The position numbers were made by a program, and so were the translations under genes. Positions 2,121-20,715 of a stretch of 37,478 bases of DNA are shown here, piece after piece; the first letter of the stretch is position 1; every line of letters begins with the position of its first letter. This DNA comes from Alkaliphilus sp. (GTDB lineage: Bacteria > Bacillota > Clostridia > Peptostreptococcales > NVVX01), in assembly GCA_002733545.1 (NCBI GenBank), contig NVVX01000014.1, forward strand, positions 22,040 to 59,517, read 5' to 3'. The notes below the pieces were generated by a model. The model made no database searches and was not told where the DNA came from. It worked only from the letters and a program-made list of their open reading frames with translations.

Positions 2121-2135
2121 TTCATTTCCTCCTAA

Positions 2136-3544: not shown

Positions 3545-3567
3545 AAAAACCGAAATCTATGATTTCG
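3545..3567 (-). terminator. Probable intrinsic terminator of the aro operon
   Basis: Minus strand CGAAATC-ATA-GATTTCG stem-loop followed by GTTTTT. Confidence 0.6.
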
Positions 3568-3635
3568 TGTAAATCACTTTGTTATTTCACCTAGACAAAG
3601 CCTAACAAAGTTTCATCAAAATCAATCTTAAAACT

Positions 3636-3686
3636 TTAACTTTTATGATCGATTTGGTCAATTTTTTCCCGCAGCGTTTTAATCAT
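3636..3686 (-). pseudogene. Truncated chorismate mutase (PheA/AroQ-class) N-terminal stub
   Basis: ATG overlaps the aroC stop, behind an AAGGTGG RBS. Translates MIKTLREKIDQIDHKS*, matching the LRxxIDxID signature that opens AroQ-class chorismate mutases. Confidence 0.7.
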
Positions 3687-4782: not shown

Positions 4783-6034
4783 AAATTTTCCCTCCTAAAT
4801 CTCTGAAATGTTCAAAAAAATGTGGATATGATTTATCAATTGCTTGACTATTTGTAATCTTCACTTCATCTTTACAACGAATAGATGCAATTGCCAAGCT
4901 CATAGCAATACGATGGTCATTCCAACTATCAACAACACCTCCAGTTAAGCGTTTTCGTCCATAAATTACCAATCCCTCTGGCTGTTCTATTATTTGAGCT
5001 CCTAATTTATTAAGTTCTGTCGTAATTGCTTTTAATCTATCAGATTCTTTAATCCTTAACCGCGAAGCATTTACTATTTCAGTTTTACCATTACTAAGTG
5101 CTGCTAGTACAGTTAAAATAGGAATTATATCAGGACATTGCGATGCATCGATTGTTGTTCCGATAGTCTTAGATTGCGATACGAAAATACTATCATCCTT
5201 AATCTCAATCTTACCATTCATTCTTTTAACAATGTCAACAATCTCACTATCGCCTTGTATTGAATTGATATTAAGCCCATTAATTTCAATATCGCCCCCA
5301 ATTAAACCAGCTACTATCCAAAATGCAGCTTGTGAATAATCACCTTCAATTTGAAGTTCTCTAGATAAAAACTTTTGATTCCCCTTAATTAAATAACGCT
5401 GATGTTCATCATTCTCAATCTTTATGTTAAATTTATTTAGAACATCTATCGTAAGATTGATATATCCTTTCGATTCAAGTGGCGTAGTCAAGACAATCTC
5501 TGAATCGTCATTCAATAATGGTAAAACAAACATTAAGCCTGTGATAAATTGCGAACTTATATCTCCTCTAATTTCATACTTTCCTGGTTTTAATTTTCCT
5601 TCAACAACCAAAGGTAATCCATCATTATAAGCATAATAAATGTTCTGTTCTTTAAAAATTTTAAAATATGGGTCTAGTGGTCGTGTCTTAAGCTTTCCTT
5701 TGCCATTAAACACAAACGGTTCATCGACTAAAGTACAAAATGGTACTAAAAACCTCAGAGTCGATCCTGATTCATGACAGTCTATAGAATGCATAGGTGT
5801 GTTCAACTTGCCTTGAGAAAAAATGTCTGCACTAGAAGAAGATTTGTCGATAGTAATTCCAAATGCATTCATTGCATTACAAGTTGCTTTTATATCTTCT
5901 GAGAAAATGAGATTGCTAATTTTAGATTTGCCCTTTGCAAGTGAGGCCGCAATAATCGCACGATGCGAAATGCTTTTTGATGGCGGAACAGATACCGTTC
6001 CTTTTAACACTTTTGGTATTATCTTTACATGCAT
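4775..6034 (-). CDS. aroA: 3-phosphoshikimate 1-carboxyvinyltransferase (EPSP synthase)
   Basis: PPSKSISHRA, ESGSTLRF, SSQFITGL, EGDYSQA, LRIKESDRL, DHRIAMS, KSYPHFF. Confidence 0.97.
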   Translation of the reverse strand: MHVKIIPKVLKGTVSVPPSKSISHRAIIAASLAKGKSKISNLIFSEDIKATCNAMNAFGITIDKSSSSADIFSQGKLNTPMHSIDCHESGSTLRFLVPFCTLVDEPFVFNGKGKLKTRPLDPYFKIFKEQNIYYAYNDGLPLVVEGKLKPGKYEIRGDISSQFITGLMFVLPLLNDDSEIVLTTPLESKGYINLTIDVLNKFNIKIENDEHQRYLIKGNQKFLSRELQIEGDYSQAAFWIVAGLIGGDIEINGLNINSIQGDSEIVDIVKRMNGKIEIKDDSIFVSQSKTIGTTIDASQCPDIIPILTVLAALSNGKTEIVNASRLRIKESDRLKAITTELNKLGAQIIEQPEGLVIYGRKRLTGGVVDSWNDHRIAMSLAIASIRCKDEVKITNSQAIDKSYPHFFEHFRDLGGKICE

Positions 6035-6045
6035 TTTATCTCCTC

Positions 6046-7110
6046 CTAAATAGAATAATTACCTAGTTCACTAATTTTCACAGATCTAATTACTGTTTGT
6101 CCAATACATCTTAAGAATATAAAGTTGATGGAATCTCCAAATCTTTTCTTATCATTCTTCATAATTTCTTTTAAACTACCATTTACTCCAACATCAGTCT
6201 GGGTAGGCAAATTGAATTTTATTAATATTTCTTTAATTTTCTCAGATGTTCCCTGTTTAGTAATTCCTTTATTTTCAGATATTTTTGTAATTTGATACAT
6301 CCCTATAGCAATTGCTTCCCCATGGGTAAATCCTTCATAATTAAAAGCTTTCTCTAAGGCATGCCCTATGGTATGCCCAAAATTTAATACCATTCTTTGC
6401 CCGTAGTCACGCTCATCTTTAGCAACTACTTCACTCTTTATTTGGCAGCATCGAAAAATAATAGATTCAATTGCATTGAAAACACCATCATGAGATTGTA
6501 ATTTTAAAATTTCGTTAAATAAATTCTCATCATAAATACACCCATATTTTATAACCTCAGCCATTCCGCTAATAAATTCTTTTTGTGGCAATGTTCGTAA
6601 GAGTTGTGGATCAATAAGTACAATTTCAGGATGGTGAAAAATTCCTACTAGATTCTTTCCCTCATCTATATTAACAGCAACCTTTCCTCCGATGCTACTG
6701 TCTACCATAGATAATAGACTTGTCGGTATATGTATTAGTTTAATTCCACGAAGATAGGTTGCTGCTAAAAAACCCGCAAAATCCCCGACAACTCCACCAC
6801 CGAACGCAATAATCAAGTCAAAGCGCGTAATTTCTAAAGTTAAAAGTGATTTATATAGAACTTCCAGATTTGAAAAATGCTTACTTTTTTCTCCGGGTTC
6901 AATAACTATTTGAACAACAAAACAACTCATTTTTTCTAATGTTTTTTGTAATGCTTTACCATATAGTCTATATAAATTTTTATCAGTTATTACCACAATC
7001 CTTTTCATTTGAGAAGTTGTTTGAATGTGATGATTAATTTCACTAAACAACCCATTTTTAATACAAATTTTGTACTGCTTATGTTCTAAGTTTAGTTGTA
7101 TTGTTTTCAT
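6046..7110 (-). CDS. aroB: 3-dehydroquinate synthase
   Basis: GEKSK, GGGVVGDFAGF, PTSLLSMVDSSIGGK, KNLVG, LNFGHTIGHA, HGEAIAIGM, DKK. Confidence 0.97.
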   Translation of the reverse strand: MKTIQLNLEHKQYKICIKNGLFSEINHHIQTTSQMKRIVVITDKNLYRLYGKALQKTLEKMSCFVVQIVIEPGEKSKHFSNLEVLYKSLLTLEITRFDLIIAFGGGVVGDFAGFLAATYLRGIKLIHIPTSLLSMVDSSIGGKVAVNIDEGKNLVGIFHHPEIVLIDPQLLRTLPQKEFISGMAEVIKYGCIYDENLFNEILKLQSHDGVFNAIESIIFRCCQIKSEVVAKDERDYGQRMVLNFGHTIGHALEKAFNYEGFTHGEAIAIGMYQITKISENKGITKQGTSEKIKEILIKFNLPTQTDVGVNGSLKEIMKNDKKRFGDSINFIFLRCIGQTVIRSVKISELGNYSI

Positions 7111-7112
7111 AA

Positions 7113-8204
7113 CTAACCTCCAATATGAACAGGATTATTTTTGCCAAAGTCAGAAGATTCGATTAATTGTTTCGCCATCAATTTATCTTCTTGTGAATAA
7201 AACCCTATTTTTAATACCCCTGGTATATTTTCTCTTGAATGAACAATTTCAATGTCTTTAATGTTGATTTGCTGCTTAGCTAAAATCCCTGTCGTCTCAG
7301 CAACCATACCAGGTTGATTTTTCACATCGATAAAGAGCGTGCAATCCTGTTCAATCCAATCACTAAAATGCTTAGGAATTCGTTCGCGATATTCCTTTGC
7401 TTTAGTCAGTTGAGAATGTATCCACTGCAATTTCTTTTCTTTCAAAGCATTTCTGAATTCGTTTAAATTATGTGTAAATTCATCTATAGTCTCAATAATT
7501 TCTTGATAATTATTTGTAAGAATATCAGTCCATAGATTTGGATTGCCAGAAGCAATTCTTGTAATATCTCTAAAACCTCCGCCAACATAATCAATTAGTG
7601 ATTCTTCTTTGTCTTGAAGTAAATTAACCATTATTGCTGCGTTAATATGTGGCAAATGACTCGTTCTAGCAACAATTAGGTCATGTAGCTCAGGACTAAT
7701 TATTACACTCTTTGCACCAAGAAAATTGATTAAACATTCAACTTTTTTGAGTACTTCTTGATTATTATTCTGATCAGTTAAAAAATAATATGCATTTTCA
7801 AATAAATGTGCTTTAGCTGCTTCAAATCCTGATTGCTCTGAGCCAACCATCGGATGACCCCCAATAAATGTTTGAGTAGACAAAATATTTTTTTCAATAA
7901 TTTTATGCGCTTTTACCTTTACACTACCCACATCTATAATTATACAATCATCCGTTAAATACTTAGCAATTTTTTTAAAAGCACTCTCGTATTTCCCGAC
8001 AGGAATGGCGAGAATTAGCAAATCTGTTTGGTCAAATCCTTCTTGAACAATTATATTTTCTATAAACGCTTTATCAAGGTTTTTACTATTTGTATCTAGC
8101 CCACAAATTCTACCTTTAAACCCGTTCTCTTTTAGAGCTTTAGCAATTGAACCTCCAATTAATCCAAGCCCAATAATAGTAATGTTTTTAAAGTCAATTT
8201 CCAT
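7113..8204 (-). CDS. tyrA: Prephenate dehydrogenase with C-terminal ACT domain
   Basis: IGLGLIGGS, DVGSVK, GGHPMVGSE, HD...SHLPH, GGGFRDITRIA, ACT (NQPGMVA). Confidence 0.95.
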   Translation of the reverse strand: MEIDFKNITIIGLGLIGGSIAKALKENGFKGRICGLDTNSKNLDKAFIENIIVQEGFDQTDLLILAIPVGKYESAFKKIAKYLTDDCIIIDVGSVKVKAHKIIEKNILSTQTFIGGHPMVGSEQSGFEAAKAHLFENAYYFLTDQNNNQEVLKKVECLINFLGAKSVIISPELHDLIVARTSHLPHINAAIMVNLLQDKEESLIDYVGGGFRDITRIASGNPNLWTDILTNNYQEIIETIDEFTHNLNEFRNALKEKKLQWIHSQLTKAKEYRERIPKHFSDWIEQDCTLFIDVKNQPGMVAETTGILAKQQINIKDIEIVHSRENIPGVLKIGFYSQEDKLMAKQLIESSDFGKNNPVHIGG

Positions 8205-9222
8205 TGTAATTCACCATGTCTTTTATCGCATCACTCACTTTTCCAACAGAAACAACAAGTTTTTCAAATCGTTCGGGTTTTAATGATTGTTGTCCATCCG
8301 ATAAAGCTTTCTCAGGATTATTGTGTACTTCTACCATAATTCCATCTGCTCCTACTGCGACAGCTGCCCGTGACATTGGCTCAACCATGTGCCACTTCCC
8401 AGTAGCATGACTCGGATCTATTATAATTGGTAAGTGACTAAGCTCTTTAACCGCTATTACAGTAGCTAAATCTAGCGTATTACGTGTATAGTTCTCAAAA
8501 GTTCTAATCCCACGCTCACACAATACAATTTGAGAATTACCTGATGCCATAATATATTCTGCAGACATTAAAAATTCTTCAATAGTTGCAGACATTCCTC
8601 GTTTTAGCATAATAGGTTTTTTCGCTTTGCCAGCTTTTTTTAGTAACGAAAAGTTTTGCATATTTCTCGCACCTATTTGAATTATATCTGTATACGATTC
8701 AACTAAATCAAAGTCCTCTGTGGACATAGCTTCTGTAATAATTGGTAGTCCAGTTAATTCTTTTGCTTCTTTTAATAACTTCAATCCTTTTTCACCTAAC
8801 CCTTGAAAACTATACGGTGATGTACGTGGCTTAAAAGCACCCCCTCTTAAAATATGCGCTCCCGCTGCTTTAACTGATTGTGCTATAGTTAAGATTTGCT
8901 CTCTACTTTCAACTGAGCATGGACCTGCAATAATTGTTAAATTGCCTCCGCCAATTTCATGCCCTTCTATCTTTAAAATAGAATTTTTGGGATGAAAAGC
9001 CCTGCTTGCCAATTTAAATGGCTCTTGCACTTTCATTACTTTTTCAACATTATGGTGTGCTTGCATATGTGTGATATCAATTTTTGCTGTGTCTCCAATT
9101 AAACCTAAAACCATACGTTCCTCGCTTCCTGCATCTTTTACTGTTAAGCCCATTGTTTTGATATTCTCAATCAGTTGATTTTTCTCTTCCTGTGTTGTTG
9201 TTCTTTTCAATATAATAATCAT
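8194..9222 (-). CDS. aroF: DAHP synthase (class I-beta with N-terminal regulatory domain)
   Basis: IAGPCSVES, RGGAFKPRTSPYSFQG, QIGARNMQNF, LKRG, CERGIR, DPSH, EVH, SDG; GGAGG RBS. Confidence 0.96.
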   Translation of the reverse strand: MIIILKRTTTQEEKNQLIENIKTMGLTVKDAGSEERMVLGLIGDTAKIDITHMQAHHNVEKVMKVQEPFKLASRAFHPKNSILKIEGHEIGGGNLTIIAGPCSVESREQILTIAQSVKAAGAHILRGGAFKPRTSPYSFQGLGEKGLKLLKEAKELTGLPIITEAMSTEDFDLVESYTDIIQIGARNMQNFSLLKKAGKAKKPIMLKRGMSATIEEFLMSAEYIMASGNSQIVLCERGIRTFENYTRNTLDLATVIAVKELSHLPIIIDPSHATGKWHMVEPMSRAAVAVGADGIMVEVHNNPEKALSDGQQSLKPERFEKLVVSVGKVSDAIKDMVNYNGN

Positions 9223-9321
9223 AAATTTCTCCTCCTGGTTTTTATTCCATTTTTTTAAAATTTATATAATTATTCTTAAAATAGTCAATCATATATCAAT
9301 CACCTCTTTTTTTTGTAAATT

Positions 9322-9350
9322 AAAAAGGAGTTTCTCGAAGAAACTCCTTT
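9322..9350 (-). terminator. Intrinsic terminator or attenuator hairpin in the aro leader
   Basis: Perfect 12-bp stem AAAGGAGTTTCT-TCG-AGAAACTCCTTT running into a T tract on the minus strand, between the promoter and aroF. Confidence 0.8.
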
Positions 9351-9378
9351 GATTAATTATTTTTATTAATCAATTATT

Positions 9379-9552
9379 TTATCTTATCACAATTTGTTTG
9401 TGATACAGACTGTCTCCAAGTTTGCCAAACCATTTTCGTATGAATTTGTTGAACGCATAATAACTTGCGCTATAAAAAAAGCCCAAGTAATAAAAATAAT
9501 AAAAGCTAACTGTAGTTTTAGTTAAACGTTTTAATAAATTTGTGTCCAACAT
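9379..9552 (-). CDS. Putative aromatic amino-acid-rich leader peptide (57 aa)
   Basis: AAAGGTGAG RBS before ATG 9552; contains FYYFYYLGFFYSASYYAF (12 of 18 residues Phe/Tyr); lies between a consensus promoter and a terminator upstream of aroF. Confidence 0.6.
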   Translation of the reverse strand: MLDTNLLKRLTKTTVSFYYFYYLGFFYSASYYAFNKFIRKWFGKLGDSLYHKQIVIR

Positions 9553-9600
9553 TTTTCTCACCTTTGTGACTATTATTTTATTCTTTATATATTATTGAAT

Positions 9601-9629
9601 ATTATAACTCTTCTAAATTCTATTGTCAA
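9601..9629 (-). promoter_or_regulatory. SigmaA promoter of the aro operon
   Basis: Exact TTGACA (9629-9624), 17-nt spacer, TATAAT (9606-9601). Confidence 0.85.
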
Positions 9630-9732
9630 TAAAAACAAACAAAGATTATTTAGCTTTCTTTGGCAAGGTTTTAATTTTTTTTTTTCTTTTCTGTCTTCTT
9701 GTACATTTAGAGGTAATTGAAAATGTACAAGG

Positions 9733-10052
9733 GTCTTTGACACTTGCAGAAAATCTAAAAACGCTACAAGTCAGTTAAATGGCTATTTTTTTTGCCTTTT
9801 TTGTCAATTTTATCGCTCTTTTTATTGCGTACCTTTTCATGCTGTGGTATAACGTAGGTATGGAGGTCGATATTTATGAGGTTAAAGATTTCAAAGTCTA
9901 AAAATGCTTCATCACTTTATGTCATTAAAGATATTAATGTAAAAGGTAAACGTACTACAAAAATTGTTGAAAAACTTGGGACTGTTGATGAGTTAAAGAA
10001 AAAATTAGATTGAGCAGAACTTATTTTCTTGTTATGTCAAGTTTGTCAAAAG
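9733..10052 (+). mobile_element. IS1634-family-like insertion sequence remnant
   Basis: Left end GTCTTTGACACTTG, degenerate complement CAAGTTTGTCAAAAG at 10038-10052; encloses a truncated transposase N-terminus with a GGAGG RBS. Confidence 0.55.
9876..10013 (+). pseudogene. Truncated IS1634-like transposase (45 aa)
   Basis: MRLKISKSKNASSLYVIKDINVKGKRTTKIVEKLGTVDELKKKLD* resembles the N-terminus of Firmicute IS1634 transposases; no DDE domain remains. Confidence 0.7.
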
Positions 10053-11648
10053 TTAATTGAGGATTATGCTGTACATCATCATTAAAAAAATAAATATAAC
10101 TAGCAAAATATTAGCGTTTTGAAACGAAATATCAAACCGTCTAATATTTTTGATGATTTTAGAGTCTTTACTTACAAAAAAGTAATGTATGGCATATGCA
10201 AATATAAAATTTATTGAGAATTTCAAAAGGTTTATTGCAAAGCCTATATTTGAAGTTCTTAAATTTTTCATATCAAGTGAATTAGATTGCCATGAAAAAT
10301 ACACTCCTGTCAAAATTATAACTACAATAACTAATGCCAATGATATGTTTTCTAATAAAAATTTCTTTTTTACACGCTTCCCATATCCAAAGAATATTTT
10401 AGACATTTTAATATATATCACTATAGAACCAATGTTGATAACGTTATGCATTATGACAGCAATATGATTACCTCTAAATCCTCCTTCAATCATGTTTTTA
10501 CTCATTTGTATAGTAGTAAATGGAGAACCTATAATGACTAACATCCCTATAATAAAGAAAAAAGAAGTAACTGGAAGTCTCTTAAACACTCCTCTAATTT
10601 CAGAAATTTTACTACTCTTATATTCTTTGATAACAATTCCTGCTGCCATGAAAAGAGAAAATTTTACCAATGCGTGGTTAAGTATATGTATAATACCACC
10701 ATTATACATCGTTTCTTCAAATCCACTTATTCCTATTAGTATAATTCCTACATGTGTAATAGTTGAAAAACCAAGCATTTGTTTAATATCATTTTGACTA
10801 ATTGCAAAGATTATGCCTAATATAGTGGTAACAAAACCTAAAGTCATAAAAAAAACTGTAAAATCATGCAAATTGAACATTTCGCTCAACCGAATAAAGC
10901 CGTATAATCCTGACTTTACAAGCAAACCTGAAAGCAAAGCCGATATTGAATTTGGAGCCGCACCGTGGGCTCGTGGCAACCAAGTATACACTGGGAAAAA
11001 AGCAGATTTAACGCCCATACTTACCATAAAAAAAATATAAGCTACGACTATAAAACCTTCACCTTTTATTATTTCTAATGCTTCTCTGATTGCAATCATA
11101 TTTAGTGTCCCTGTTGTTTTATATACTATGATAAGTCCTATTAAATATAGCAAAATTCCGACTGAATTGAATAATAAATAGTACAATCCCGCTTTAAGAG
11201 AGAACCCATCTTTTTTAAATATTATTAGTATGGATGATATCACTGTTGCAATTTCAATAAAGACAAAGAAACTAAATATATCGTTAGATTGAATTAATCC
11301 CAAAAATACGCCTTGTAGAAACAAGAGAAAAAATAAAAATACACTATCATTTTTTCTTTGTCTCCAATCATAAATTAAAACTACCCACCACAAAAATATT
11401 GAAAGTGAAACAAATAAAAAAGATAACAAATCATTTCTTAATGCAATACCTATGTTCTGATGCCACCCTCCTATTTGCAAAATATGAACTGATTCTACGG
11501 ATAAAAAACCATAGTAATTAATAACTAAATATGTAAGTGTTGTTTGAGATATAAACACACTATAATTAACTAATTTACTTTTGGAAATATACACAATAAT
11601 TGCAGTTAAGATAGGAATGGCAATTATATATATTGGGATTAGTTCCAT
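10053..11648 (-). CDS. mnhD: Mrp/Mnh antiporter subunit D-like (proton-conducting membrane transporter, NuoL/M/N family)
   Basis: Very hydrophobic 531 aa; FVFIE, GVKSAFFPVYTWLPRAHGAAPNSISALLSGLLVK, DIKQMLGFST, NHALVK motifs. Confidence 0.88.
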   Translation of the reverse strand: MELIPIYIIAIPILTAIIVYISKSKLVNYSVFISQTTLTYLVINYYGFLSVESVHILQIGGWHQNIGIALRNDLLSFLFVSLSIFLWWVVLIYDWRQRKNDSVFLFFLLFLQGVFLGLIQSNDIFSFFVFIEIATVISSILIIFKKDGFSLKAGLYYLLFNSVGILLYLIGLIIVYKTTGTLNMIAIREALEIIKGEGFIVVAYIFFMVSMGVKSAFFPVYTWLPRAHGAAPNSISALLSGLLVKSGLYGFIRLSEMFNLHDFTVFFMTLGFVTTILGIIFAISQNDIKQMLGFSTITHVGIILIGISGFEETMYNGGIIHILNHALVKFSLFMAAGIVIKEYKSSKISEIRGVFKRLPVTSFFFIIGMLVIIGSPFTTIQMSKNMIEGGFRGNHIAVIMHNVINIGSIVIYIKMSKIFFGYGKRVKKKFLLENISLALVIVVIILTGVYFSWQSNSLDMKNLRTSNIGFAINLLKFSINFIFAYAIHYFFVSKDSKIIKNIRRFDISFQNANILLVIFIFLMMMYSIILN

Positions 11649-11652
11649 CTCA

Positions 11653-11985
11653 TCACTCCGTTTCCATCAGTTCTTTCCAATTAATTGTTCCGTAATGATG
11701 AAATAATTTTATGCTCATCATCAATAGCAATGATGTAACTGATGCACCTATCACTATAGTTGTAATCATGAGTGCTTGTGGTAGAGGATCAACCATCATA
11801 TTAATTTCACCAGGTAAGATTGGCACTTTTGCATTTTTAAAATTTACTAGGTCTAAAAATAGTAGAATAATCGAGCCTTGAAGTATATTTAGAAATATTA
11901 TTGATTTGATAATGTTTTTACTCACACATAATCCATATATAGACAAAAATATAATGAAAAAGCCTAAAACAATCGTTATTTCCAC
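11653..11985 (-). CDS. mnhC: Mrp/Mnh antiporter subunit C
   Basis: KNIIKSII and DPLPQALMITTIVIG signature. Confidence 0.92.
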   Translation of the reverse strand: MEITIVLGFFIIFLSIYGLCVSKNIIKSIIFLNILQGSIILLFLDLVNFKNAKVPILPGEINMMVDPLPQALMITTIVIGASVTSLLLMMSIKLFHHYGTINWKELMETE

Positions 11986-12390
11986 TTACTTTCCCTCCTC
12001 TACGAACAAACTAAATATTAATGTTAAGCCAGAAGCTACTTTTAAACCTATTAATAGATTAATTGAAACTAAGAAATACCTTCTTATATTTTCATGATAA
12101 TCTAGTGGAAAAAAGTTTGTTAGTATTTGACCTCTTGTAATCAAACTAAGTGAGGATATGATTAGTATTGTGACAAACAGATATTTTTCAAATTTAGTCA
12201 GTATTTTCACGTTAGTTTCATTGTAATGCTTGATGAATAGAGTTGAAAGAAATGCAGTTGCTAAAACTACTCCACCTTGAAATCCTCCTCCTGGACTTCT
12301 GTCACCAAAAATAATTATATAAAAACCAAATAAGAGCATTAATGGATATAATATGCTACAAACAGTTTCAATTATTTCAGAATTTTTCAT
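11986..12390 (-). CDS. mnhB: MnhB-domain subunit
   Basis: YIIIFGDRSPGGGFQGG motif and IGLKV C-terminal helix. Confidence 0.9.
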   Translation of the reverse strand: MKNSEIIETVCSILYPLMLLFGFYIIIFGDRSPGGGFQGGVVLATAFLSTLFIKHYNETNVKILTKFEKYLFVTILIISSLSLITRGQILTNFFPLDYHENIRRYFLVSINLLIGLKVASGLTLIFSLFVEEGK

Positions 12391-12413
12391 GCTATTACCT
12401 CCAAAATCTAATA

Positions 12414-12671
12414 CTAGTCATTTCTTTGTACCATAAACAGAACTCCAGTTGCTGCAATTAATAATAATGCTGCTTCAAATATTGTATCTAGCAGTCTGTA
12501 GTCTAAGTAAACAGCAGCGACTAAATTTTTAGAGCTAGTTTCACTAAATGCATTCTTCAACAAATATTCACGCGTAAACTCATTAGTAAATTTACTAATG
12601 TCGGTTAGTGAAGTAATTGTATATATAAATATAAAAAGCAATAATAAGATAATTATTATCTTTTTACTCAT
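12414..12671 (-). CDS. Small membrane subunit (MbhE-like / MnhB N-terminal part)
   Basis: NLVAAVYLDYRLLDTIFEA matches the NxVxAxxxDxRxxDTxxE motif; start at 12671 or 12680. Confidence 0.85.
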   Translation of the reverse strand: MSKKIIIILLLLFIFIYTITSLTDISKFTNEFTREYLLKNAFSETSSKNLVAAVYLDYRLLDTIFEAALLLIAATGVLFMVQRND

Positions 12672-13218
12672 TACTTTCATCTCCTAGCAATTTTAATAAC
12701 AAAATATTATCATATTCCCGTATCATCGCATCTAGTTTGTTTAGCAGGAGACTACTCCTTCTACCCTTCAAAATATACACGTCGTTTTCTATGTCTTTTT
12801 CAACGATTAAATCTACTGCTGTTTTTTTAAAAATACCAGTTATATTTTGTTCAAATTCAAAGTGGTTGTCAAAAATAATTGTCAAATTCAGCTTATAGCT
12901 CTCTGTGAATTCCTTCAAGATAGCATATCCATACCCACAGAGCTCTCCTTCTTTGGAGTTAATAAAATCGTCATTCACCTTACTAATGACTACATACTCC
13001 TTTTGCTTAGATATTGAAATGATGAATATCAAGGGCAAAATTGCACTCCCAATTGCAATCTCGGCTAAAGCAACGTCAGGTGCGTTGTTATAAAAATATA
13101 AAAAGGCAAGAATCAACGAAAAAACTGAAAAGAAAACAATAGTATTCAATATCTTTTTTTCTTTTATTATAATTATTACAATTACCAATATGGTAATATA
13201 TAATATAATCTCAGACAT
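12664..13218 (-). CDS. DUF4040/MbhD-like membrane subunit with soluble C-terminal extension
   Basis: APDVALAEIAIG motif; start re-called at ATG 13218 behind a GAGGTG RBS. Confidence 0.85.
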   Translation of the reverse strand: MSEIILYITILVIVIIIIKEKKILNTIVFFSVFSLILAFLYFYNNAPDVALAEIAIGSAILPLIFIISISKQKEYVVISKVNDDFINSKEGELCGYGYAILKEFTESYKLNLTIIFDNHFEFEQNITGIFKKTAVDLIVEKDIENDVYILKGRRSSLLLNKLDAMIREYDNILLLKLLGDESNE

Positions 13219-13219
13219 T

Positions 13220-13519
13220 TTAGACACCTCTTTTTTCTGCAGGATAGAGTGGTAGTCCATTATCATAAGCAGATTTTACTATCATATGAGTACTCACAGG
13301 ATTGCTTATCATAAAGAAAAAAAGAACAACAAATAGTTTAAGTGTTATTAGTTCAAATCCTGTTCTAATCATAATTGCAAAAATTATTGTAATAAAAGCT
13401 ACTGTATCAATTTTACTGCTTACCAAAAAACGTGTGTAAATATTATGGAATCTAAACAGTCCTATTATTCCAAAAACAATGTATATCCACGACAAAATTA
13501 AGAGTCCTTTATATATCAC
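13220..13519 (-). CDS. mnhG: Mrp/Mnh antiporter subunit G
   Basis: GLFRFHNIYTRF...KIDT...NPVSTHMI. Confidence 0.88.
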   Translation of the reverse strand: MIYKGLLILSWIYIVFGIIGLFRFHNIYTRFLVSSKIDTVAFITIIFAIMIRTGFELITLKLFVVLFFFMISNPVSTHMIVKSAYDNGLPLYPAEKRGV

Positions 13520-13776
13520 TTATGTCTCCCCCCAGTACGAACAAATTTTGATAACAAGGCAATGCAAAGAAAGCCGATTAAAGCAAAAGTTATAGCAATA
13601 TCAATGTAGAACATGTTATCTGTTTTAACGCCGTATATAATAATAACCAACACAATTTTTGCATTAATTAAGTTTAACGAAAGCAGACGATCCCATATAG
13701 TTGGACCAAGAATAAGTCTTACCATAGTTATAATTATTGCAGCTATAAGAACCCAATACGTTATGTTAATGAACAT
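13516..13776 (-). CDS. mnhF: Mrp/Mnh antiporter subunit F
   Basis: RLILGPTIWDRLL and YIDIAITFALIGF. Confidence 0.9.
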   Translation of the reverse strand: MFINITYWVLIAAIIITMVRLILGPTIWDRLLSLNLINAKIVLVIIIYGVKTDNMFYIDIAITFALIGFLCIALLSKFVRTGGRHK

Positions 13777-13830
13777 GTAATCATTCCCAATCTAGAGAAA
13801 TTTTATTTGTTTTATTGTTTTAGACTTCAG

Positions 13831-14304
13831 TTAAAAAAAGAATCTTTGAAATGTCTTCTTTATATCTTCTGCAATCAGTTTGCCATTTTGTTTGTCGTCT
13901 TTTATTGAAAGAACTGTCAACAGGCTACTTTCTTTGTTTATTGTAATGGTTCCAGGAGTTAACGTAATAGAATTTGCAATTAATGTTACAATGTATGGAT
14001 CTTTGATATCTAATTTCAAATTAAATATTATAGGCTCCTCTTTCTTTTTAATAATCATAGGAATTAGATGAAAAGAAGCTAAATATATTTCATATATTAG
14101 AAACAAAAAATATTTGACCATTTTAAATAATGAAAGATCAAATATTTTTATAGATTCTAAAAAAACATTCTTAGATAGATAGATTACCAAAAAACATATT
14201 AGTAACCCTATTAACGCGTTTTCTATTGAAAAATCCAAGCTAAATAAAAACCAAAAAGTATAAAGAAAAGCTAATAAGTGCAAGTGTCTTATTTGTAGTT
14301 TCAT
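13831..14304 (-). CDS. mnhE: Mrp/Mnh antiporter subunit E
   Basis: LIANSITLTPGTIT signature; start re-called at ATG 14304 behind an AAGGGGTG RBS. Confidence 0.9.
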   Translation of the reverse strand: MKLQIRHLHLLAFLYTFWFLFSLDFSIENALIGLLICFLVIYLSKNVFLESIKIFDLSLFKMVKYFLFLIYEIYLASFHLIPMIIKKKEEPIIFNLKLDIKDPYIVTLIANSITLTPGTITINKESSLLTVLSIKDDKQNGKLIAEDIKKTFQRFFF

Positions 14305-14386
14305 TTTGCAACACCCTTTATGTATGGTATTTTCAAGACAGTCCATTTCTGCAATTAACATTTAAAGTATTTAATTGATACTAAAT

Positions 14387-14557: not shown

Positions 14558-14767
14558 TTGAAAGGTTTGCCAATGATTACTTCATGTAGTCCTGGATGGA
14601 TAAATTATATTGAGGGTTTTCATCCTGATTTACTCGAACATCTTTCAACCTGTAAGTCGCCCCAACAAATGTTTGGTGCTCTCTCCAAAAACTATCCTAG
14701 TGGATGCATTGGTGGTGGTGGACAACCTATCAGTTCTACTAAAAAAATAGTCACCAAATGTATATAA
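14558..14767 (+). pseudogene. Internally deleted [FeFe]-hydrogenase H-cluster fragment
   Basis: LPMITSCSPGWINYIE...LSTCKSPQQMFGA (L1 motif region) is joined almost directly to PSGCIGGGGQP (L3 motif); L2 and all other domains are missing. Confidence 0.8.
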
Positions 14768-14793: not shown

Positions 14794-14842
14794 TGTAGCT
14801 TCGCAAGCTTTTTTGCAAATTTTCGCAACTTATTCTGCAAAA
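14794..14842 (+). repeat. Predicted prophage terminus with two tandem 22-bp transposase-binding sites
   Basis: TG at 14794-14795, then CTTCGCAAGCTTTTTTGCAAAT (14799-14820) and TTTCGCAACTTATTCTGCAAAA (14821-14842), i.e. positions 6-27 and 28-49 from the end as for Mu R1/R2. Confidence 0.75.
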
Positions 14843-14850
14843 ACACCGCT

Positions 14851-15885
14851 TTATTCAACTTCTTTATTCTCTCTCGTAAGCACCAAATTCTCTAACAGAC
14901 TTTCTTTAAGTTTTTTCGTATCCGCAAAGTCTATATGACCCATATACCCAGCCATAACTCTTTTTACTTCTTCTAATGTCATTTCACCTTTTCTATATTT
15001 CTCGCCTATAATCTTTAAAACCTTCTTTATCCTTCTTTTTGTCTGTGACTTAATAAGAATGTGAGTTGACCACACCCTATATCCTAAAAATGTTACACCT
15101 CTATTAGCTGGGAAAACTTGCGTTTTGCTGTTTGTTTTCAGGTGCAATTCTAAGTCTATATAATCCTCTATACACGCTCTTGTCTGGTGCAATTCTTCTT
15201 TGTTCGAGCCGAGAATAATGAAGTCGTCCATGTATCTTATGTAGTATTTAATTCCTAAGTCTTCTTTCGCAAAATGATCCAACTCGTTCAGGTACGTATT
15301 TGCTAATAATTGTGATGTCAGAGCCCCAATCCCTAGCCCTTTAATCCCTTCGTTGATTTCTATGATCAACTTTAGTAACCACAGCAGGTCAGGATCTTTT
15401 ATTTTCTTCTCGACAATTTGGTATAGAGTTTCTTGAACAATCGAAGGAAAGTATTTTGCAATATCAGCCTTCAAACAATAAACTTTTCCAAACTTTTTTT
15501 CTGCTTCTTTCAGATTATTTTGGAGCTTCGTAACTGCTGCATGTGTCCCTTTGCCTTGTCTACACGCATAATTATCGCTTATAAATGTATCATCGAATAT
15601 AGGCTCTATTATGTTGTTTATAGCGTGATGCAGGACTCTGTCGTAGAAAGCTGGCGCAGAAATCAGTCTTTTCTTTGGAAAATAAGAATAAAAATCTCTA
15701 ATCGGTCGCGGTTTGTATGTTTTCCAAATGAGTTCATTCTGTAAATTTATTAGGCTTTCTTCAAGATTTTCTGTGTATTTTAAAACTTCTCTATCATATC
15801 TTTTGTTTTTTCTGGCCTTTAGGTACGCTAGATGCAAATTTTTAAAATCGTATATTTTTTCATATAGATGACCATGTCTTTTCAA
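14851..15885 (-). CDS. DGR reverse transcriptase
   Basis: KKRLISAPAFYDRVLHHA, YACRQGKGTH, LKADIAKYFPSI, GLGIGALTSQLLANTYL (DGR-type GxxxSQ), YIRYMDDF, FLGY. 344 aa with no maturase or endonuclease domain; TTG start. Confidence 0.96.
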   Translation of the reverse strand: MKRHGHLYEKIYDFKNLHLAYLKARKNKRYDREVLKYTENLEESLINLQNELIWKTYKPRPIRDFYSYFPKKRLISAPAFYDRVLHHAINNIIEPIFDDTFISDNYACRQGKGTHAAVTKLQNNLKEAEKKFGKVYCLKADIAKYFPSIVQETLYQIVEKKIKDPDLLWLLKLIIEINEGIKGLGIGALTSQLLANTYLNELDHFAKEDLGIKYYIRYMDDFIILGSNKEELHQTRACIEDYIDLELHLKTNSKTQVFPANRGVTFLGYRVWSTHILIKSQTKRRIKKVLKIIGEKYRKGEMTLEEVKRVMAGYMGHIDFADTKKLKESLLENLVLTRENKEVE

Positions 15886-16049
15886 TGCCTACCCCCTTTT
15901 TTTTAGAGCGGACGTTCTTCGAGCAAGTGCCTACCAAACGCCCTCTCAGATACTGCATGTATTTACCTCTACAGGAAGGTGATAAACCCCTTTCTCTTCG
16001 TGCACTGGATGCAGACCCATAGGTCTACATCTTCTGGCTTTGAAGACAG
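15886..16049 (-). ncRNA. Structured spacer of the DGR template RNA (between TR and RT)
   Basis: Hairpin GATGTAGACC-TATG-GGTCTGCATC (16031-16008, one G-U pair) and a second stem GGGCGTT...AACGTCC; position equivalent to the BPP-1 spacer. Confidence 0.6.
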
Positions 16050-16157
16050 AGCGGAGCGAAACCCGATGTTCGTGTTCACGTTCGAGCGAACGTTGTTCAA
16101 ATTCAACGCGAAAACTCCAGCACTGGACGAATTGTTCCAATTGCCACCACGTAACGG
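16050..16157 (-). repeat. DGR template repeat (TR) with IMH*
   Basis: Core 16056-16157 aligns without gaps to 16635-16736 with 12 mismatches, all at TR adenines; nine AAY codons in the target frame. Confidence 0.97.
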
Positions 16158-16180
16158 CATATACGGTCTACCACCTGTGC

Positions 16181-16549
16181 TTAATTGCTCTTTTTTATCC
16201 ATCCCCCTAGTATTCTGCCAAGTTCTGCTATTTTCTCAGATATGTTTTTGTACTTGTTGAATGAAAGAAAAGGGCTTCCGTTCGCCTTGCTAGTCAACTC
16301 GCTAGCAAGGCGGAACATTGTTTTTAGATACTGTAATTCAATGTCTATATCTCTTAAAGTTGTCTTTTTGTGATACTTTTTACTAGCCGCAATGAGCATT
16401 TTAAGAATGTTATGCATGCTATTTTTTATATCCGCTGCCATGGTATGCTTTTCGGATTTTGGAAACTCACCTAAGCAAATGTAAACATACCTAATTAAGT
16501 CGTACATCTTTTGTGTTATGATCATTGACTCGTGTTTTTCTTCTGTCAT
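16181..16549 (-). CDS. avd: DGR accessory variability determinant (Avd, four-helix bundle)
   Basis: Basic 122-aa helical protein with FPKSEK and ELGRILGGW motifs, between the target gene and TR. Confidence 0.92.
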   Translation of the reverse strand: MTEEKHESMIITQKMYDLIRYVYICLGEFPKSEKHTMAADIKNSMHNILKMLIAASKKYHKKTTLRDIDIELQYLKTMFRLASELTSKANGSPFLSFNKYKNISEKIAELGRILGGWIKKSN

Positions 16550-16564
16550 TTCTCACCTCGCGCT

Positions 16565-16586
16565 TGTCCTCGCTATCGCTCAGACA
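16565..16586 (-). promoter_or_regulatory. Candidate DGR target-recognition hairpin downstream of VR/IMH
   Basis: Minus strand TGTC-T-GA-GC-GATA-GC-GA-G-GACA, about 28 nt after the target stop codon. Confidence 0.6.
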
Positions 16587-16613
16587 TCAGATTTCATGTT
16601 TTCAGATACCATA

Positions 16614-17681
16614 TTACAGAACAACAAAAGCGGCGCGAAACCCGATGTTCGTGAGCACGTTCGAGCGAACGTAGTACAAAAGCAACGCGAAAACCCCAGC
16701 ACTGGACGAACTGCCCCAACTGCCACCACGCAACGGAAAATACTCCGTATTTGCTACTGTCGCGAACCAGAATCCATCATGTCCGAATTCCGCAACGCCT
16801 GTGACGTCCATGCTCGCTTGTATTCCTTCTTTTGTGATAGCTGCCAGTGTTTTTAATGCCGTTATTTTTTGTCCACTTGTGCCTGAAACGATTACCCCGC
16901 TCGGAACGCCGCCTTTCGTAATTTCACTGTTTCGCAACGTTATTCCCGCTACCCATTCCCAGACATTACCGTTAAGATCGTATACCCCTGTTGTTTTGCC
17001 GTTGTGTGTAGTCAGATTGACTCCAGCGCCCCAGCCTGTTTTTGTTCCTGTGCCAATTAGCGCGCGACCAGCTTGCGTAGGGTCAGCTGTAAACACTACT
17101 GAAGTGTCGTCCACATCTTTTAAGCTGCTGTTATTCCCGTATGGTTGCCAACGATTAGCCCCAAACACAGCAGGACCAATTAGCATGGAATATACCGCAA
17201 GCGATACAGCTTGCTCGTTTGTCATCATTTGTACATTCGAAGCTATGCACGCAGCAACAGAAGCATCCCAATCGACAGAGATCCAAGGTATAACCCCTTG
17301 CCTGCTCGTAGCAAGTGTTCCAACCCCTGCAGCACTGTTACTTGCATCGTTTCTGCTTGCTTGATATTTTCCAGCGTAGAAACCTAAGAACAAGACTTCT
17401 ACATAATCAGCATTTACTATCCCTGTCGCAGGCTCTACACTCACGAAAAAGCCAATTGGTCGACTCGGATGCGAGCACGCAGTCGGATTTATTAGCATAT
17501 ATGCACGAAAACTAGGCTGCCAAACGTAGATACTATTGTCAACTATGAAATCGTGATTCTCGTGTGCGTTTCCAGTGTCTAGCGCGTGCAATTTTTGCGT
17601 TTGAGAGACAAAAACACCGTCACTGTTTTGTGTGAAAGCGCTTGTAGGACTTCCGGCTCCTGTTCTTCTTATCAATATCAC
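16614..17681 (-). CDS. DGR target: Mtd-like / FGE-type C-lectin-fold protein, probable receptor-binding protein
   Basis: GKYQAS, PW, GVYDLNGNVWEW and C-terminal LRGGSW...GVFAL...NIGFRAA; carries the VR; last gene of the tail module. Confidence 0.9.
   Translation of the reverse strand: MILIRRTGAGSPTSAFTQNSDGVFVSQTQKLHALDTGNAHENHDFIVDNSIYVWQPSFRAYMLINPTACSHPSRPIGFFVSVEPATGIVNADYVEVLFLGFYAGKYQASRNDASNSAAGVGTLATSRQGVIPWISVDWDASVAACIASNVQMMTNEQAVSLAVYSMLIGPAVFGANRWQPYGNNSSLKDVDDTSVVFTADPTQAGRALIGTGTKTGWGAGVNLTTHNGKTTGVYDLNGNVWEWVAGITLRNSEITKGGVPSGVIVSGTSGQKITALKTLAAITKEGIQASMDVTGVAEFGHDGFWFATVANTEYFPLRGGSWGSSSSAGVFALLLYYVRSNVLTNIGFRAAFVVL
16629..16736 (-). repeat. DGR variable repeat (VR) with GC-rich/IMH end
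   Basis: Encodes PLRGGSWGSSSSAGVFALLLYYVRSNVLTNIGFR versus TR PLRGGNWNNSSSAGVFALNLNNVRSNVNTNIGFR. Confidence 0.97.
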
Positions 17682-18016
17682 GCCATCACCGCCTTCAGTG
17701 TCGTTATTTCAGTTCCTGTCAAGTCTGTTTCTGTTCCATCCAAAGCAAAACTTAAGCACCAGTAGTTAGTGCTTGTACTTTGAAACACAGTCGCAGACTC
17801 TTCGTCTGACGTCAAGCCTAAAAAATACCCATTCGGCGTAATCATGACCATATAGTCGCCTTCCGATCTAATCGATAAATCAAAAAAAGTTTCTGCCAAA
17901 CTGACCGTTTCTCCATTTATGATTGCGACCCCAGCCGGCATTGTCACATTCATCCCCGCCACAGATGGTGTTATATCATAACTTATATTCTCATATACTC
18001 CTGTGATTGTTTTCAT
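17678..18016 (-). CDS. Hypothetical tail-fibre-region protein
   Basis: 112-aa ORF with GAGG RBS; stop overlaps the start of the DGR target; function inferred from position only. Confidence 0.6.
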   Translation of the reverse strand: MKTITGVYENISYDITPSVAGMNVTMPAGVAIINGETVSLAETFFDLSIRSEGDYMVMITPNGYFLGLTSDEESATVFQSTSTNYWCLSFALDGTETDLTGTEITTLKAVMA

Positions 18017-18031
18017 AATTTCACTTCCTCT

Positions 18032-18586
18032 CTAAAATGTTAAAACAAGCGAGGCAACTTGCAAGTTACCTGTGTGTGTGTCTAGCATGTCATCACCTAT
18101 TCTAGTCAATTTTATGGTAATGGGGTCCCCTGCAATATATGCAGTGTTTGGGATTGTATTCGCAAGTGTCATTATGTGATATCCAGCCCCTACCCCTGGC
18201 GTAACTGTATGTATCGCATCTACGAAAGTTGTACCCTTTATGCTGTATGAAAAATTAATTCTTATGTCACCAGCGTCTGCCTGCCCGACAAAATATCCGA
18301 GATTAATGCTGATATCTCCAGACTCGCCCACAAAACTGCAGATTGCTGTTTGCAAAAAATCTGCTGCAAATTCAATTGTTGGTATTTCTCCAGTTAGTCC
18401 TTGTGTTGGCTCTGCCAGAGGGTCCGCTAACATCACATTAATTTCTACACTTCCAATCGCCTGCGCCGCAACAATACCTTCTTCGATGTTATTCATGATA
18501 GAAGCATTTATGGGCGTTCCGACCTGAATGATGTTTCCTTGTTGATCCTTTATTTGATCGATATGAGTGTTTCTTATATACGCCAC
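18032..18586 (-). CDS. Putative tail fibre/adaptor protein
   Basis: N-terminal GTPINASIMNNIEEGI motif typical of Firmicute phage tail-fibre N-termini; beta-rich remainder. Confidence 0.65.
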   Translation of the reverse strand: MAYIRNTHIDQIKDQQGNIIQVGTPINASIMNNIEEGIVAAQAIGSVEINVMLADPLAEPTQGLTGEIPTIEFAADFLQTAICSFVGESGDISINLGYFVGQADAGDIRINFSYSIKGTTFVDAIHTVTPGVGAGYHIMTLANTIPNTAYIAGDPITIKLTRIGDDMLDTHTGNLQVASLVLTF

Positions 18587-18587
18587 T

Positions 18588-18884
18588 CTACACCACCTCC
18601 TGTATATTTATGTCGAATGCAAACATTATTCCTTGCATGTCTGTCTTTGTAGTTATATCTTGTTTTTCTAAAAAGATTCTCCCCATGTTGTCTAGAAGAA
18701 TGATTTTTGTTATTGTTCCTGTTACTAGATCGTCGAAATAAACAAGTATTCTTATTTTGTTTCCTGTTATTTCAACTTTGTGTATGGCGACCGTCCTAGG
18801 AGCGCCCTCAAATGTCATTTCTGCATGTGTTAAAAAGAGCTCAATACTCTTTGCAATAGCTTCTTTCCCTTGTGTTGTTATCAC
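18588..18884 (-). CDS. Hypothetical baseplate/fibre-attachment protein
   Basis: Probable GTG start 18884 overlapping the upstream TGA, GGAGAGGTG RBS; ITTQGK start resembles fibre-collar N-termini. Confidence 0.55.
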   Translation of the reverse strand: MITTQGKEAIAKSIELFLTHAEMTFEGAPRTVAIHKVEITGNKIRILVYFDDLVTGTITKIILLDNMGRIFLEKQDITTKTDMQGIMFAFDINIQEVV

Positions 18885-19582
18885 AATATCACCTCTCCTA
18901 CCATAAATGTCCCGCATACTCTAAAGTTTTTTGTTGCTATAATGTTAGATGTCTCAAATATGCTTGTGTATGAATGCCCTTTTATTTTATTCATTAACTC
19001 ATTTGATAAGAATGTACCGCATATTGGAAAATTGTATATGCCTGTATTATAAGACGTTTGTAGTCGCAATGTTGAATTGTAAAAATAGCCGTAATTTGGT
19101 AGAGCACTCGCTGGTTTTGTTCTTCTAATTTCTTTCTGCAAAGCCAAAAGGTTGTCTAGTGTGTTTAATTCGCCCTTGTCTACAAATACAATGAACTCCG
19201 CCCATCTCAGCAAATCTGTTTTATAGAGCGATTCAATGTATGCGTTTTCATGCCCTATACCTTTAAGCGCAATTAGCATCCCTTCGCTAGTCCCAGCTTT
19301 TCCTGCAATCACTTTTTTCAGCATAAGTCTATTTCTGAAAAGTTCCTCGCTTTCGTCATGCAGGCGTTGCATGCTTCTGTCTGCGCCATGTTGATTGAGC
19401 ATTTCCATAGAAGCACTCACAGCCATGGATTCTTCCCTAGCTTTGAAAATATCTTCTTTCGTCTTTTCGGCTATCCCCCCGAGAACTCTAAAAAATATTT
19501 GCAATTGATTCTTGTGGTTTACGACCTTTTTTAGTGGATTGTGGAGCAAGTAATACATGTATTCACAAAATTTATCAAACAT
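18881..19582 (-). CDS. Baseplate wedge protein (P2 gpI / Mu gp48-like)
   Basis: Follows baseplate J; LNQHGADR...ESEELFRNRL, KAGT, KPAS motifs. Confidence 0.7.
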   Translation of the reverse strand: MFDKFCEYMYYLLHNPLKKVVNHKNQLQIFFRVLGGIAEKTKEDIFKAREESMAVSASMEMLNQHGADRSMQRLHDESEELFRNRLMLKKVIAGKAGTSEGMLIALKGIGHENAYIESLYKTDLLRWAEFIVFVDKGELNTLDNLLALQKEIRRTKPASALPNYGYFYNSTLRLQTSYNTGIYNFPICGTFLSNELMNKIKGHSYTSIFETSNIIATKNFRVCGTFMVGEVIL

Positions 19583-19584
19583 GC

Positions 19585-20715
19585 CTACACCCTCTCAATA
19601 ATCACAGTTACGCTACCTAGGACAATAACCTTGTCATTTTGCAAAATTACATCGCCCGCAGGAGTTGTTATTTTGACATTTCTTAAAATACTTATCTCTT
19701 TTTTGAGCGCGAATATCAAGTCTGCTATATACAATTCGTTCAACTTTCTCTCTTTGGTCATTTTAAAAGCATCTGCAATTATTGATACCACCTTATTTTC
19801 TATCCCTGTGACATCAGTTAGAATTGGAATATAGATCGATACGCTCACATTCTGCGTTACTGCTTGCGCTGATTTCACGAGCAAGTTGTCGTGTGGCGCT
19901 CTTATTTTTTCAGCTTCCAATTTGACTTCGTCAAGGAGTATCTGTGTAGCTTCTCCAGCTGTGGATGTGATAATTATATCCACTGTTCCCTGCCCGCGTG
20001 GATGCATGTCGTCCACCGTAGCGAACAAAACTCCTGGCACTGCTTCGCATACAGTTCTGTACTTACCACTAATCGGATATGCTGCTAGCTCAGCCCATGA
20101 ATTGAGAATTCTTCCCCTGAACATCTCATCACTCTCAACATCACTTCCTTCTCGTGTAACCCACCCTCCCTCGTTTACAATCTCGTCTATCCCCTCAATG
20201 TAAACTAAAGACTTCTTTATTTGCCCTGATGGTAGATTGTATTTGATTCCTTCTCTTTCTGCTTCTACCAAAACTTCTGTAGATAAAATATTCTTTGCTA
20301 AAAATACGTCTTCCGTAGAAACAAACCTGAACTCTTCTCCATTTATATCCTTTTCTGTCTTAAAAACATTTCCTTTTGCAATTTTCAAGTTTGTGGTCGC
20401 TACAGTTCTTTTTAATGTCAAATTCCCCATAGTTTTTGTAGCTTCTTTCCTTTTCTTTGAATAGTCCGCGCCTTTGAAATCAAGCCAAATCCCATCAGCA
20501 GATGAGACGAACATATTTGATAACACCGTCCTGAGAAGTTTCACAAGTTCGATTCTAATCTGAATGAATATCATGATAATTGTGAAAAAGATTCCACCAC
20601 TATTGAAATTGTTTATGCTGAACCCTTCTGCTTCGAGTTCGCTAATTATCTCATCTTTTAGTCCATCTCGATCTGGTATAGGAATAACTCCATCTAAGAC
20701 TTTCTCACTCATCAT
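19585..20715 (-). CDS. Baseplate J / Mu gp47-family protein
   Basis: ADGIWLD, GIKYNLPSGQI, GSDVESDEMFRGRI, VPGV, PRGQGTVDIII. Confidence 0.92.
   Translation of the reverse strand: MMSEKVLDGVIPIPDRDGLKDEIISELEAEGFSINNFNSGGIFFTIIMIFIQIRIELVKLLRTVLSNMFVSSADGIWLDFKGADYSKKRKEATKTMGNLTLKRTVATTNLKIAKGNVFKTEKDINGEEFRFVSTEDVFLAKNILSTEVLVEAEREGIKYNLPSGQIKKSLVYIEGIDEIVNEGGWVTREGSDVESDEMFRGRILNSWAELAAYPISGKYRTVCEAVPGVLFATVDDMHPRGQGTVDIIITSTAGEATQILLDEVKLEAEKIRAPHDNLLVKSAQAVTQNVSVSIYIPILTDVTGIENKVVSIIADAFKMTKERKLNELYIADLIFALKKEISILRNVKITTPAGDVILQNDKVIVLGSVTVIIERV

Follow-up and report, generated by a model that had tools for sequence, protein, structure and literature searches.

The stretch of DNA analysed here, called the window throughout, comprises 37,478 nucleotides of an Alkaliphilus sp. 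assembly (contig NVVX01000014.1), and carries at positions 14851-17681 the parts of a diversity-generating retroelement (DGR). These parts, all minus-strand and with co-oriented open reading frames (ORFs), lie in the order target gene (ending in the variable repeat, VR), avd, template repeat (TR), spacer and reverse transcriptase (RT):

16614-17681, minus strand: DGR target gene (variable protein), 355 aa, GTG start; predicted TaqVP-like FGE-type C-type-lectin fold
16635-16736, minus strand: VR core, target codons 316-349 of 355; gapless alignment to the TR
16629-16743, minus strand: VR, extended repeat, from the repeat search
16629-16645, minus strand: candidate IMH-type element (IMH, where mutagenic homing is initiated) at the 3' end of the VR repeat; A-free, G+C-rich
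16181-16549, minus strand: avd, accessory variability determinant, 122 aa; Pfam, NCBIfam and phrog matches
16056-16157, minus strand: TR core, 23 adenines
16050-16164, minus strand: TR, extended repeat, from the repeat search
15904-16051, minus strand: structured spacer RNA, Rfam RT-14 (RF02921), adjoining the TR 3' end
14851-15885, minus strand: DGR reverse transcriptase, 344 aa, TTG start after a GGGGG ribosome-binding site

The longest repeat of the region is direct and 115 nt long, its copies (16050-16164 and 16629-16743) being offset by 579 nt. Within it the 102-nt TR and VR cores align without gaps and differ at 12 positions, all 12 of them adenines of the TR coding strand; the VR-core substitutions are A>G (six), A>T (four) and A>C (two), and the hypergeometric chance that 12 out of 12 mismatches hit the 23 adenines among 102 positions is 1.0e-9. 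Over the full 115 nt, 13 of the 15 mismatches are at TR adenines; of the three beyond the core, one is at an adenine, one is a G>T at 16158, near the 5' border of the repeat, and one is a T>G at 16055 (16634 on the VR side), six bases from the repeat's 3' end. An earlier note, made from the letters of this DNA, had described the 12 gap-free, adenine-only core differences, and these are borne out at the coordinates it gave; its nine listed codon changes are correct, including the two synonymous ones (TTA>TTG and GGA>GGG), and a recount returns the same 23 TR adenines, nine in-frame AAY codons and approximately 7e13 DNA variants. The diversity permitted by the TR is 7.0e13 at the DNA level and 4.9e12 at the protein level, over 14 codons, with a stop codon impossible.

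The changed adenines of the core amount to 12 of 23 (52%), matching the changed fraction of about 0.5 in 37 related TR/VR pairs; misincorporation by the complex of the BPP-1 RT (bRT) with Avd is likewise given as 52% (PMC7826257). The genome itself holds a single TR copy and a single VR copy. At its 3' end the repeat closes with a conserved, A-free and G+C-rich block of about 17 nt, directly after which TR and VR begin to diverge; by analogy with BPP-1, this block may provide the directionality of the transfer. In BPP-1, cDNA synthesis is described as starting at TR 117 (PMC6182149), and the terminal A-free block would, on that model, escape copying. The TR also lies within a 77-aa open frame (15969-16202, minus strand) whose product resembles the target's C-terminal peptide and which shares 22 nt with the end of avd; this is probably not a gene, but merely an open frame inherited from VR-like sequence.

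Two similar repeats beside an RT gene could also arise as an ordinary duplication, diverged by chance or gene conversion, next to an RT that belongs to a group II intron, a retron or a defence system. The window RT does in fact match the NCBIfam model for group II RTs and maturases at 141.5 bits, below its cut-off of 300, and has sub-threshold matches to NCBIfam retron and DRT models. Against this stand the adenine-only mismatches, with their chance probability of about 1e-9, and the affinities of the RT: besides RVT_1 (73 bits) and phrog_1423 (446 bits), its closest PDB entry is 8ub7_A (E 1.9e-60, 208 bits, residues 2-326), whereas the group II intron RTs in the PDB reach about 80 bits. Entry 8ub7 also contains an Avd chain and, judging from motif numbering that agrees with PMC7826257, appears to be the BPP-1 RT-Avd complex; a literature search found no paper naming PDB entry 8UB7. 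The RT carries the motifs IGALTSQ (186-192) and YMDD (218-221), of which the former follows the pattern [I/V/L]GxxxSQ described as the signature of DGR RTs, as opposed to QGxxxSP in group II maturases (PMC7826257). Its R73 is the equivalent of bRT R74, and the equivalent of bRT I181 is also present, two residues reported to promote adenine mutagenesis (PMC7826257).

The remaining evidence on the origin of the RT comes from its relatives and its neighbours. In a quick maximum-likelihood search, which is less telling for having used viral RTs chosen by similarity to the window RT, the window RT and 36 viral DGR RTs form a group with 99% support (Shimodaira-Hasegawa-like approximate likelihood-ratio test, SH-aLRT), apart from seven other RT regions of the genome; the phylogenetic placement that the earlier note had proposed as a check is thus with DGR RTs and not among the group II-like RTs of the genome. 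Between the repeats and the RT lie, moreover, the Avd gene and the RT-14 spacer. Avd matches Pfam bAvd at 109.8 bits (cut-off 40), NCBIfam DivGenRetAVD at 104 bits (cut-off 80) and phrog_3206, annotated 'Avd protein of DGR'. The tests on mismatches, RT, Avd and spacer together rule out an ordinary duplication with an RT from elsewhere, to which we assign next to no chance of being correct.

The genome has nine further RVT_1 matches, on contigs C44, C20, C53, C56, C36 and C10. Six of the seven such regions examined carry QGxxxSP together with YxDD, as do group II intron-like RTs; a 352-aa RT on C10, with Abi_2 and AAA_21 genes beside it, has the look of a defence RT.

The repeat pair recurs in related phages. 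Among 80 viral contigs retrieved with the target protein, 43 end the target with a VR of 90-140 nt that is repeated 523-699 nt downstream; with a pair defined by at least 80% of its mismatches lying on adenines of the downstream copy, 534 of the 550 pooled mismatches in these 43 loci are at TR adenines. The other 37 loci yield no such pair by the thresholds used, several of them ending near the target. Avd and RT follow downstream in the same order in 46 of the 80 (tblastn). In 37 distinct TR/VR pairs approximately half of the TR adenines are changed at all distances between 10 and 110 nt from the 3' end, and the terminal stretch of about 17 nt is conserved, with two adenines in the last 10 nt in the whole set. 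In one viral locus (L072, 4690-6010), a VR-like stretch matches not one TR but four downstream copies, at 66-79% identity, which may be an array of repeat copies. A DNA search of the phage database gave four short matches only (3-5% of the query), all of them over the part with TR and spacer.

The spacer between TR and RT matches the Rfam motif RT-14 (RF02921) over the full length of the model, with 66.2 bits at a gathering score of 48.1. Rfam describes RT-14 merely as occurring near RT genes. In the loci compared here its position is more exact: the motif reaches its gathering score in 14 of 38 related viral loci (9 of 20 plus 5 of 18), as well as in one metagenome locus (L144), and in every such locus it begins at the 3' end of the TR. 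Across 15 sequences, 25 of the 32 consensus pairs retain pairing through compensatory double changes. By analogy with BPP-1, the spacer is presumed to be the part of the DGR RNA that primes cDNA synthesis and forms the ribonucleoprotein (RNP). A sister motif, RT-10, is described as lying between TR and RT of BPP-1, and the passages of the same paper on other RT motifs offer their service to DGRs as speculation only (PMC5737381). In a search of the full-text literature, the only other place to mention RT-14 was a survey of RNA 3D motifs, with no link to DGRs; the supplements of the 2017 motif paper, which lie outside that search, may hold more.

One part of the earlier description finds no support, namely a hairpin between VR and avd. 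Folding of the minus strand with DNA parameters (16545-16640) gives z = -0.83, a result equalled by 36 of 200 shuffles, and the only inverted repeats between VR and avd have short arms (6-9 nt), set 63-69 nt apart. Guo et al. are said to have described, in 2011, a hairpin or cruciform just downstream of the VR of BPP-1, a feature that is reportedly not universal. A different hairpin, with a perfect 11-bp stem, lies inside avd (16281-16314), about 117 nt upstream of the TR; its RNA fold has z = -3.38, with 2 of 200 shuffles equally good. It has no counterpart at the same place in 43 related loci, and because it is not conserved there it is left out of the system.

The target gene closes a block of tail genes:

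17678-20715, minus strand: tail/baseplate block upstream of the target, from Pfam and phrog matches
19585-20715, minus strand: baseplate J gene (Baseplate_J, 101.9 bits)
18881-19582, minus strand: tail protein gene (phrog_6 and phrog_34969 matches for the block)
between the tail protein gene and the target, minus strand: three small ORFs (109, 184 and 112 aa) immediately preceding the target

Searched as a single sequence, the target finds PDB entry 5vf4_A at 36 bits, in two short stretches; a profile built from 43 target homologues (alignment A1) matches the same chain with E 7.3e-80 and 272 bits, over chain residues 6-384. The target further matches phrog_2889 at 110 bits, and Pfam FGE-sulfatase at 17.5 bits, under the cut-off of 23.3. 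Entry 5VF4 is TaqVP, the protein diversified by the DGR of a Thermus aquaticus prophage; TaqVP is described as monomeric, with a single domain of the FGE-type C-type-lectin fold and with its VR at residues 341-381 (PMC6328139). Target residues 313-353, within which the VR occupies 316-349, align with TaqVP chain residues 344-384. Because of this profile match the target is assigned, at the level of sequence, as a full-length TaqVP homologue with a C-type-lectin fold.

Gene order and published generalities argue for a target protein on the tail that may bind the host receptor, so that its diversification would alter host range, and this reading has, in our judgement, the balance of probability on its side. 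The target comes last in the baseplate/tail block, with an overlap of 4 nt between its start and the stop of the ORF upstream; the succession baseplate J, tail protein, small ORFs, target recurs in related loci. In the nearest relative (L003) the order is the same as in the window (baseplate J, tail protein, 184-aa ORF, 112-aa ORF, target, Avd, RT), and L024/L025 and L144 have most of it. Tail proteins are reported to be the targets of most viral DGRs (PMC8144416), and the target has a weak match to phrog_5302, annotated 'tail protein'.

The same protein could, in a genuine DGR, serve some other ligand-binding role, such as adhesion of the virion to particles or polymers, or have a function on the side of the lysogen; against the tail-borne receptor-binding role speak the following observations. 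TaqVP, the nearest relative with a solved structure, is a monomeric single-domain protein for which the relevant parts of the paper describe neither a demonstrated virion role nor a known ligand (PMC6328139). Pfam, phrog and PDB profile searches find no tail-fibre or trimerisation domain in the target, and the ORFs of 184, 112 and 109 aa before it have no Pfam match at E up to 10 save one at chance level. Capsid-decoration proteins are reported as DGR targets in some phages, for example Mushu and Brigit (PMC5883640). Set against the gene order, its recurrence in relatives and the prevalence of tail targets, such another role appears possible but distinctly the less probable. The 184-aa ORF also has no PDB match; Atlas leads to Mtd_N and T4_gp9_10_N for the small ORFs before the target score 0.77-0.79, below a usable level, and were rejected.

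Upstream of the target, the structural genes, which make up a contractile-tail module, continue through terminase, portal, protease, major head protein, sheath, tube, tape measure, baseplate wedge, baseplate J and tail protein. Beyond the window, on the same contig and ahead of the terminase, lie Mor (68 bits), an Amidase_3 endolysin, a 3D-domain protein and GemA (65.2 bits); contig C65 encodes a 631-aa MuA-type transposase (Mu-transpos_C 49.9, rve 35.3 and DDE_2 32.1 bits) and, adjacent to it, a 331-aa MuB-like ATPase (AAA_22, 55.1 bits). The carrier of the DGR is a Mu-like transposable myovirus prophage, with the DGR as its last module by the right end; the order of genes is that of Mu-like phages, and there are therefore no lysis genes after the tail genes. 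The right end has the following features:

14794-14850, unstranded: prophage right end, a TG...CA-type inverted repeat with tandem repeats resembling transposase sites, from comparison with the left end and with L144
14789-14793, unstranded: 5-bp target-site duplication ACATC, with its second copy next to the left end, at C65:7125-7129

The right end is at window position 14794, 57 nt past the RT stop, and the left end at C65:7124; the two form inverted repeats with ungapped identities of 11/15 and 19/30, both flanked by ACATC. As these ends are on separate contigs (C9, which includes the window, and C65) whose junction is not assembled, the prophage measures at least 34,003 bp (window 14794-37478, C9 to its end, and C65:1-7124). 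At its end the G+C content steps from about 29% in the host to 36-45%. The metagenome contig L144, with an RT 48% identical to that of the window, has nearly the same tandem end repeats, which finish in CTACA about 90 nt after the RT. A search for an empty integration site in 20 relatives gave none, the sole matches being to a conserved hydrogenase motif.

L144, a contig otherwise unrelated, carries baseplate J, tail protein, target, Avd and RT in this order, and its phage part stops at 6100-6200. Immediately beyond the prophage end, at 14558-14767 of the window (plus strand), is a 69-aa remnant of the large subunit of an Fe-only hydrogenase, whose match to Fe_hyd_lg_C (65.6 bits) is restricted to profile positions 69-112; C43 and C67 have full-length paralogues of about 585 aa. 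The host flank on this side consists of the hydrogenase remnant and Mrp antiporter genes, and a gene on the opposite host flank (C65) looks by eye like recA. Further into the host part (window 1-14361, minus strand) are genes for threonine synthase and homoserine dehydrogenase and a series of genes for aromatic amino acids (chorismate synthase, EPSP synthase, dehydroquinate synthase, prephenate dehydrogenase, DAHP synthase), followed by subunits of an Mrp-type antiporter.

The locus is classed as a BPP-1-type DGR because Avd passes its cut-offs, the RT has the signature and the clade of DGR RTs, the TR/VR differences in the core are adenine-only and the target is TaqVP-like; the earlier claim of a complete, apparently intact system of this kind is in this respect upheld. 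The parts and the mutational footprint are observed directly, and by analogy with BPP-1 the locus is very probably a functional-looking DGR in which RT and Avd would carry out spacer-primed, adenine-mutagenic cDNA synthesis followed by one-way replacement of the VR. The RT-Avd complex would bind an RNA that runs from the end of avd through the TR and the RT-14 spacer, and cDNA synthesis would be self-primed from the spacer. The RT would copy the TR faithfully save at adenines, where any base may enter, and the cDNA would take the place of the VR at the target gene's 3' end, the repeat's own A-free, G+C-rich end presumably making the transfer one-way. As many as 14 codons may thereby be rewritten in the putative C-terminal ligand-binding surface of the lectin-fold target; nine of the 14 are AAY, and none can turn into a stop.

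Whether the element is active at present is a separate matter, on which the available assemblies bear. Eleven public runs hold the whole or part of the stretch, as contigs, and four of them (X1, X2, X6 and X7) were compared. X1 and X2, either of which may be the source sample, each have one contig across 14500-18200 with 0 differences; a contig of X7 covers 16458-16702, and thus part of the VR, also with 0 differences; X6 is uncovered over 16360-17103, so that its VR lies outside the comparison. The four runs come from four coded studies (subsurface, seawater, marine) and show no differences in covered pieces of at least 150 nt, which suggests a single strain that is widespread or was sampled repeatedly. 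In the protein collection, 10 contigs have an identical target protein, and the only other member of its 90% protein cluster is identical save for the first letter. Searches of the viral, metagenome and genome collections gave no near-identical prophage with a different VR, the best match having 53% identity. In P0002, a relative at 77%, 12 of 35 VR residues differ, 7 of them at codons with a TR adenine (by eye, with the TR of the window as reference).

These identities, the T/G difference within the presumed IMH-type end of the repeat and the failure to find a VR-flanking hairpin would fit a DGR that is structurally intact but silent or fixed, in which a single earlier homing event made the present VR and the lysogen population diversifies no further. 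Several features speak against this: the frames are all open, with catalytic and signature motifs intact; 52% of the TR adenines are changed, as for a fresh homing product; and two of the VR changes are synonymous. Identical contigs, moreover, do not show inactivity, because contigs drop rare variants and hide minority ones; the runs that agree with the window could, besides, be the source sample or one strain. A silent element is a tentative alternative, which we hold to be rather unlikely, to the functional-looking DGR described above.

Compared with the known systems, the window matches the DGRs of BPP-1 and T. aquaticus in each tested defining feature but the BPP-1 hairpin. It shares with BPP-1 (mtd-avd-TR-brt) the gene order, a C-terminal VR in a target of C-type-lectin fold, Avd, TR, a structured spacer, an RT that bears the signature [I/V/L]GxxxSQ, and TR-to-VR differences at adenines only. 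It differs from BPP-1 in its carrier, a Mu-like myovirus prophage, which BPP-1 is not known to be; in its target, which is TaqVP-like and single-domain, whereas the trimeric Mtd has prism and sandwich domains; in the hairpin flanking the VR, which is found in BPP-1 but was not found here; and in its spacer, which is RT-14 where that of BPP-1 is RT-10 (PMC5737381). With the T. aquaticus prophage DGR it shares the VR at the extreme C-terminus and the order target-avd-TR-RT (PMC6328139). TaqVP differs, however, in the longer inserts it shows in the profile alignment and in the weak single-sequence match (36 bits) noted above, and the host of the window is low in G+C (about 30%).

Phage Mu carries its host-range switch, the G segment with Gin, after the tail genes at the right end of the genome, where site-specific inversion alternates between two fibre variants. 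The DGR of the window occupies the same position, after the tail genes and with the RT stop 57 nt from the end, but would act through retro-mutagenesis, with ~1e12 variants, in place of inversion; no invertase was seen in the right-end region, although no search aimed at invertases was made. Going by their descriptions, the hankyphage of Bacteroides and the Faecalibacterium phage Mushu are likewise transposable, Mu-like temperate phages with a DGR and Avd, and the activity of their DGRs is reported from VR polymorphism at TR-adenine positions (PMC12135933, PMC5883640). Their hosts, however, are gut bacteria, whereas the DNA of the window is found in marine, seawater and subsurface runs, and the target of Mushu is described as Hoc-like (PMC5883640), that of the window being of the FGE/C-type-lectin type.

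Systems of this kind are thus well known, DGRs acting on phage tail proteins, including those of transposable phages, being in print (PMC5883640, PMC12135933, PMC8144416), and for this reason the present one is real but ordinary: one further intact example beside tens of thousands of catalogued DGRs, which alone changes little. What it adds is small and consists of by-products that are modestly useful, namely the placing of RT-14 as spacer RNA of this DGR clade and a terminal DGR in a Mu-like lineage. The prophage is exactly bounded, with its target duplication, and comes from an uncultured low-G+C bacterium present in marine and subsurface runs.

We favour, with some reserve, a joint reading in which the orphan motif RT-14 is the spacer (priming and RNP-forming) RNA in a large clade of phage DGRs whose targets are TaqVP-like, in the manner of RT-10 in BPP-1, and in which the DGR is a fixed right-end module of a Mu-like lineage, at the place of the host-range switch. 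RT-14 is tied here to an exact place, directly 3' of the TR, and a DGR clade distinct from that of BPP-1 gains a spacer RNA that can be tested. If this joint reading is true, each copy made by replicative transposition could be diversified independently, so that a single burst would release a library of receptor-binding variants.

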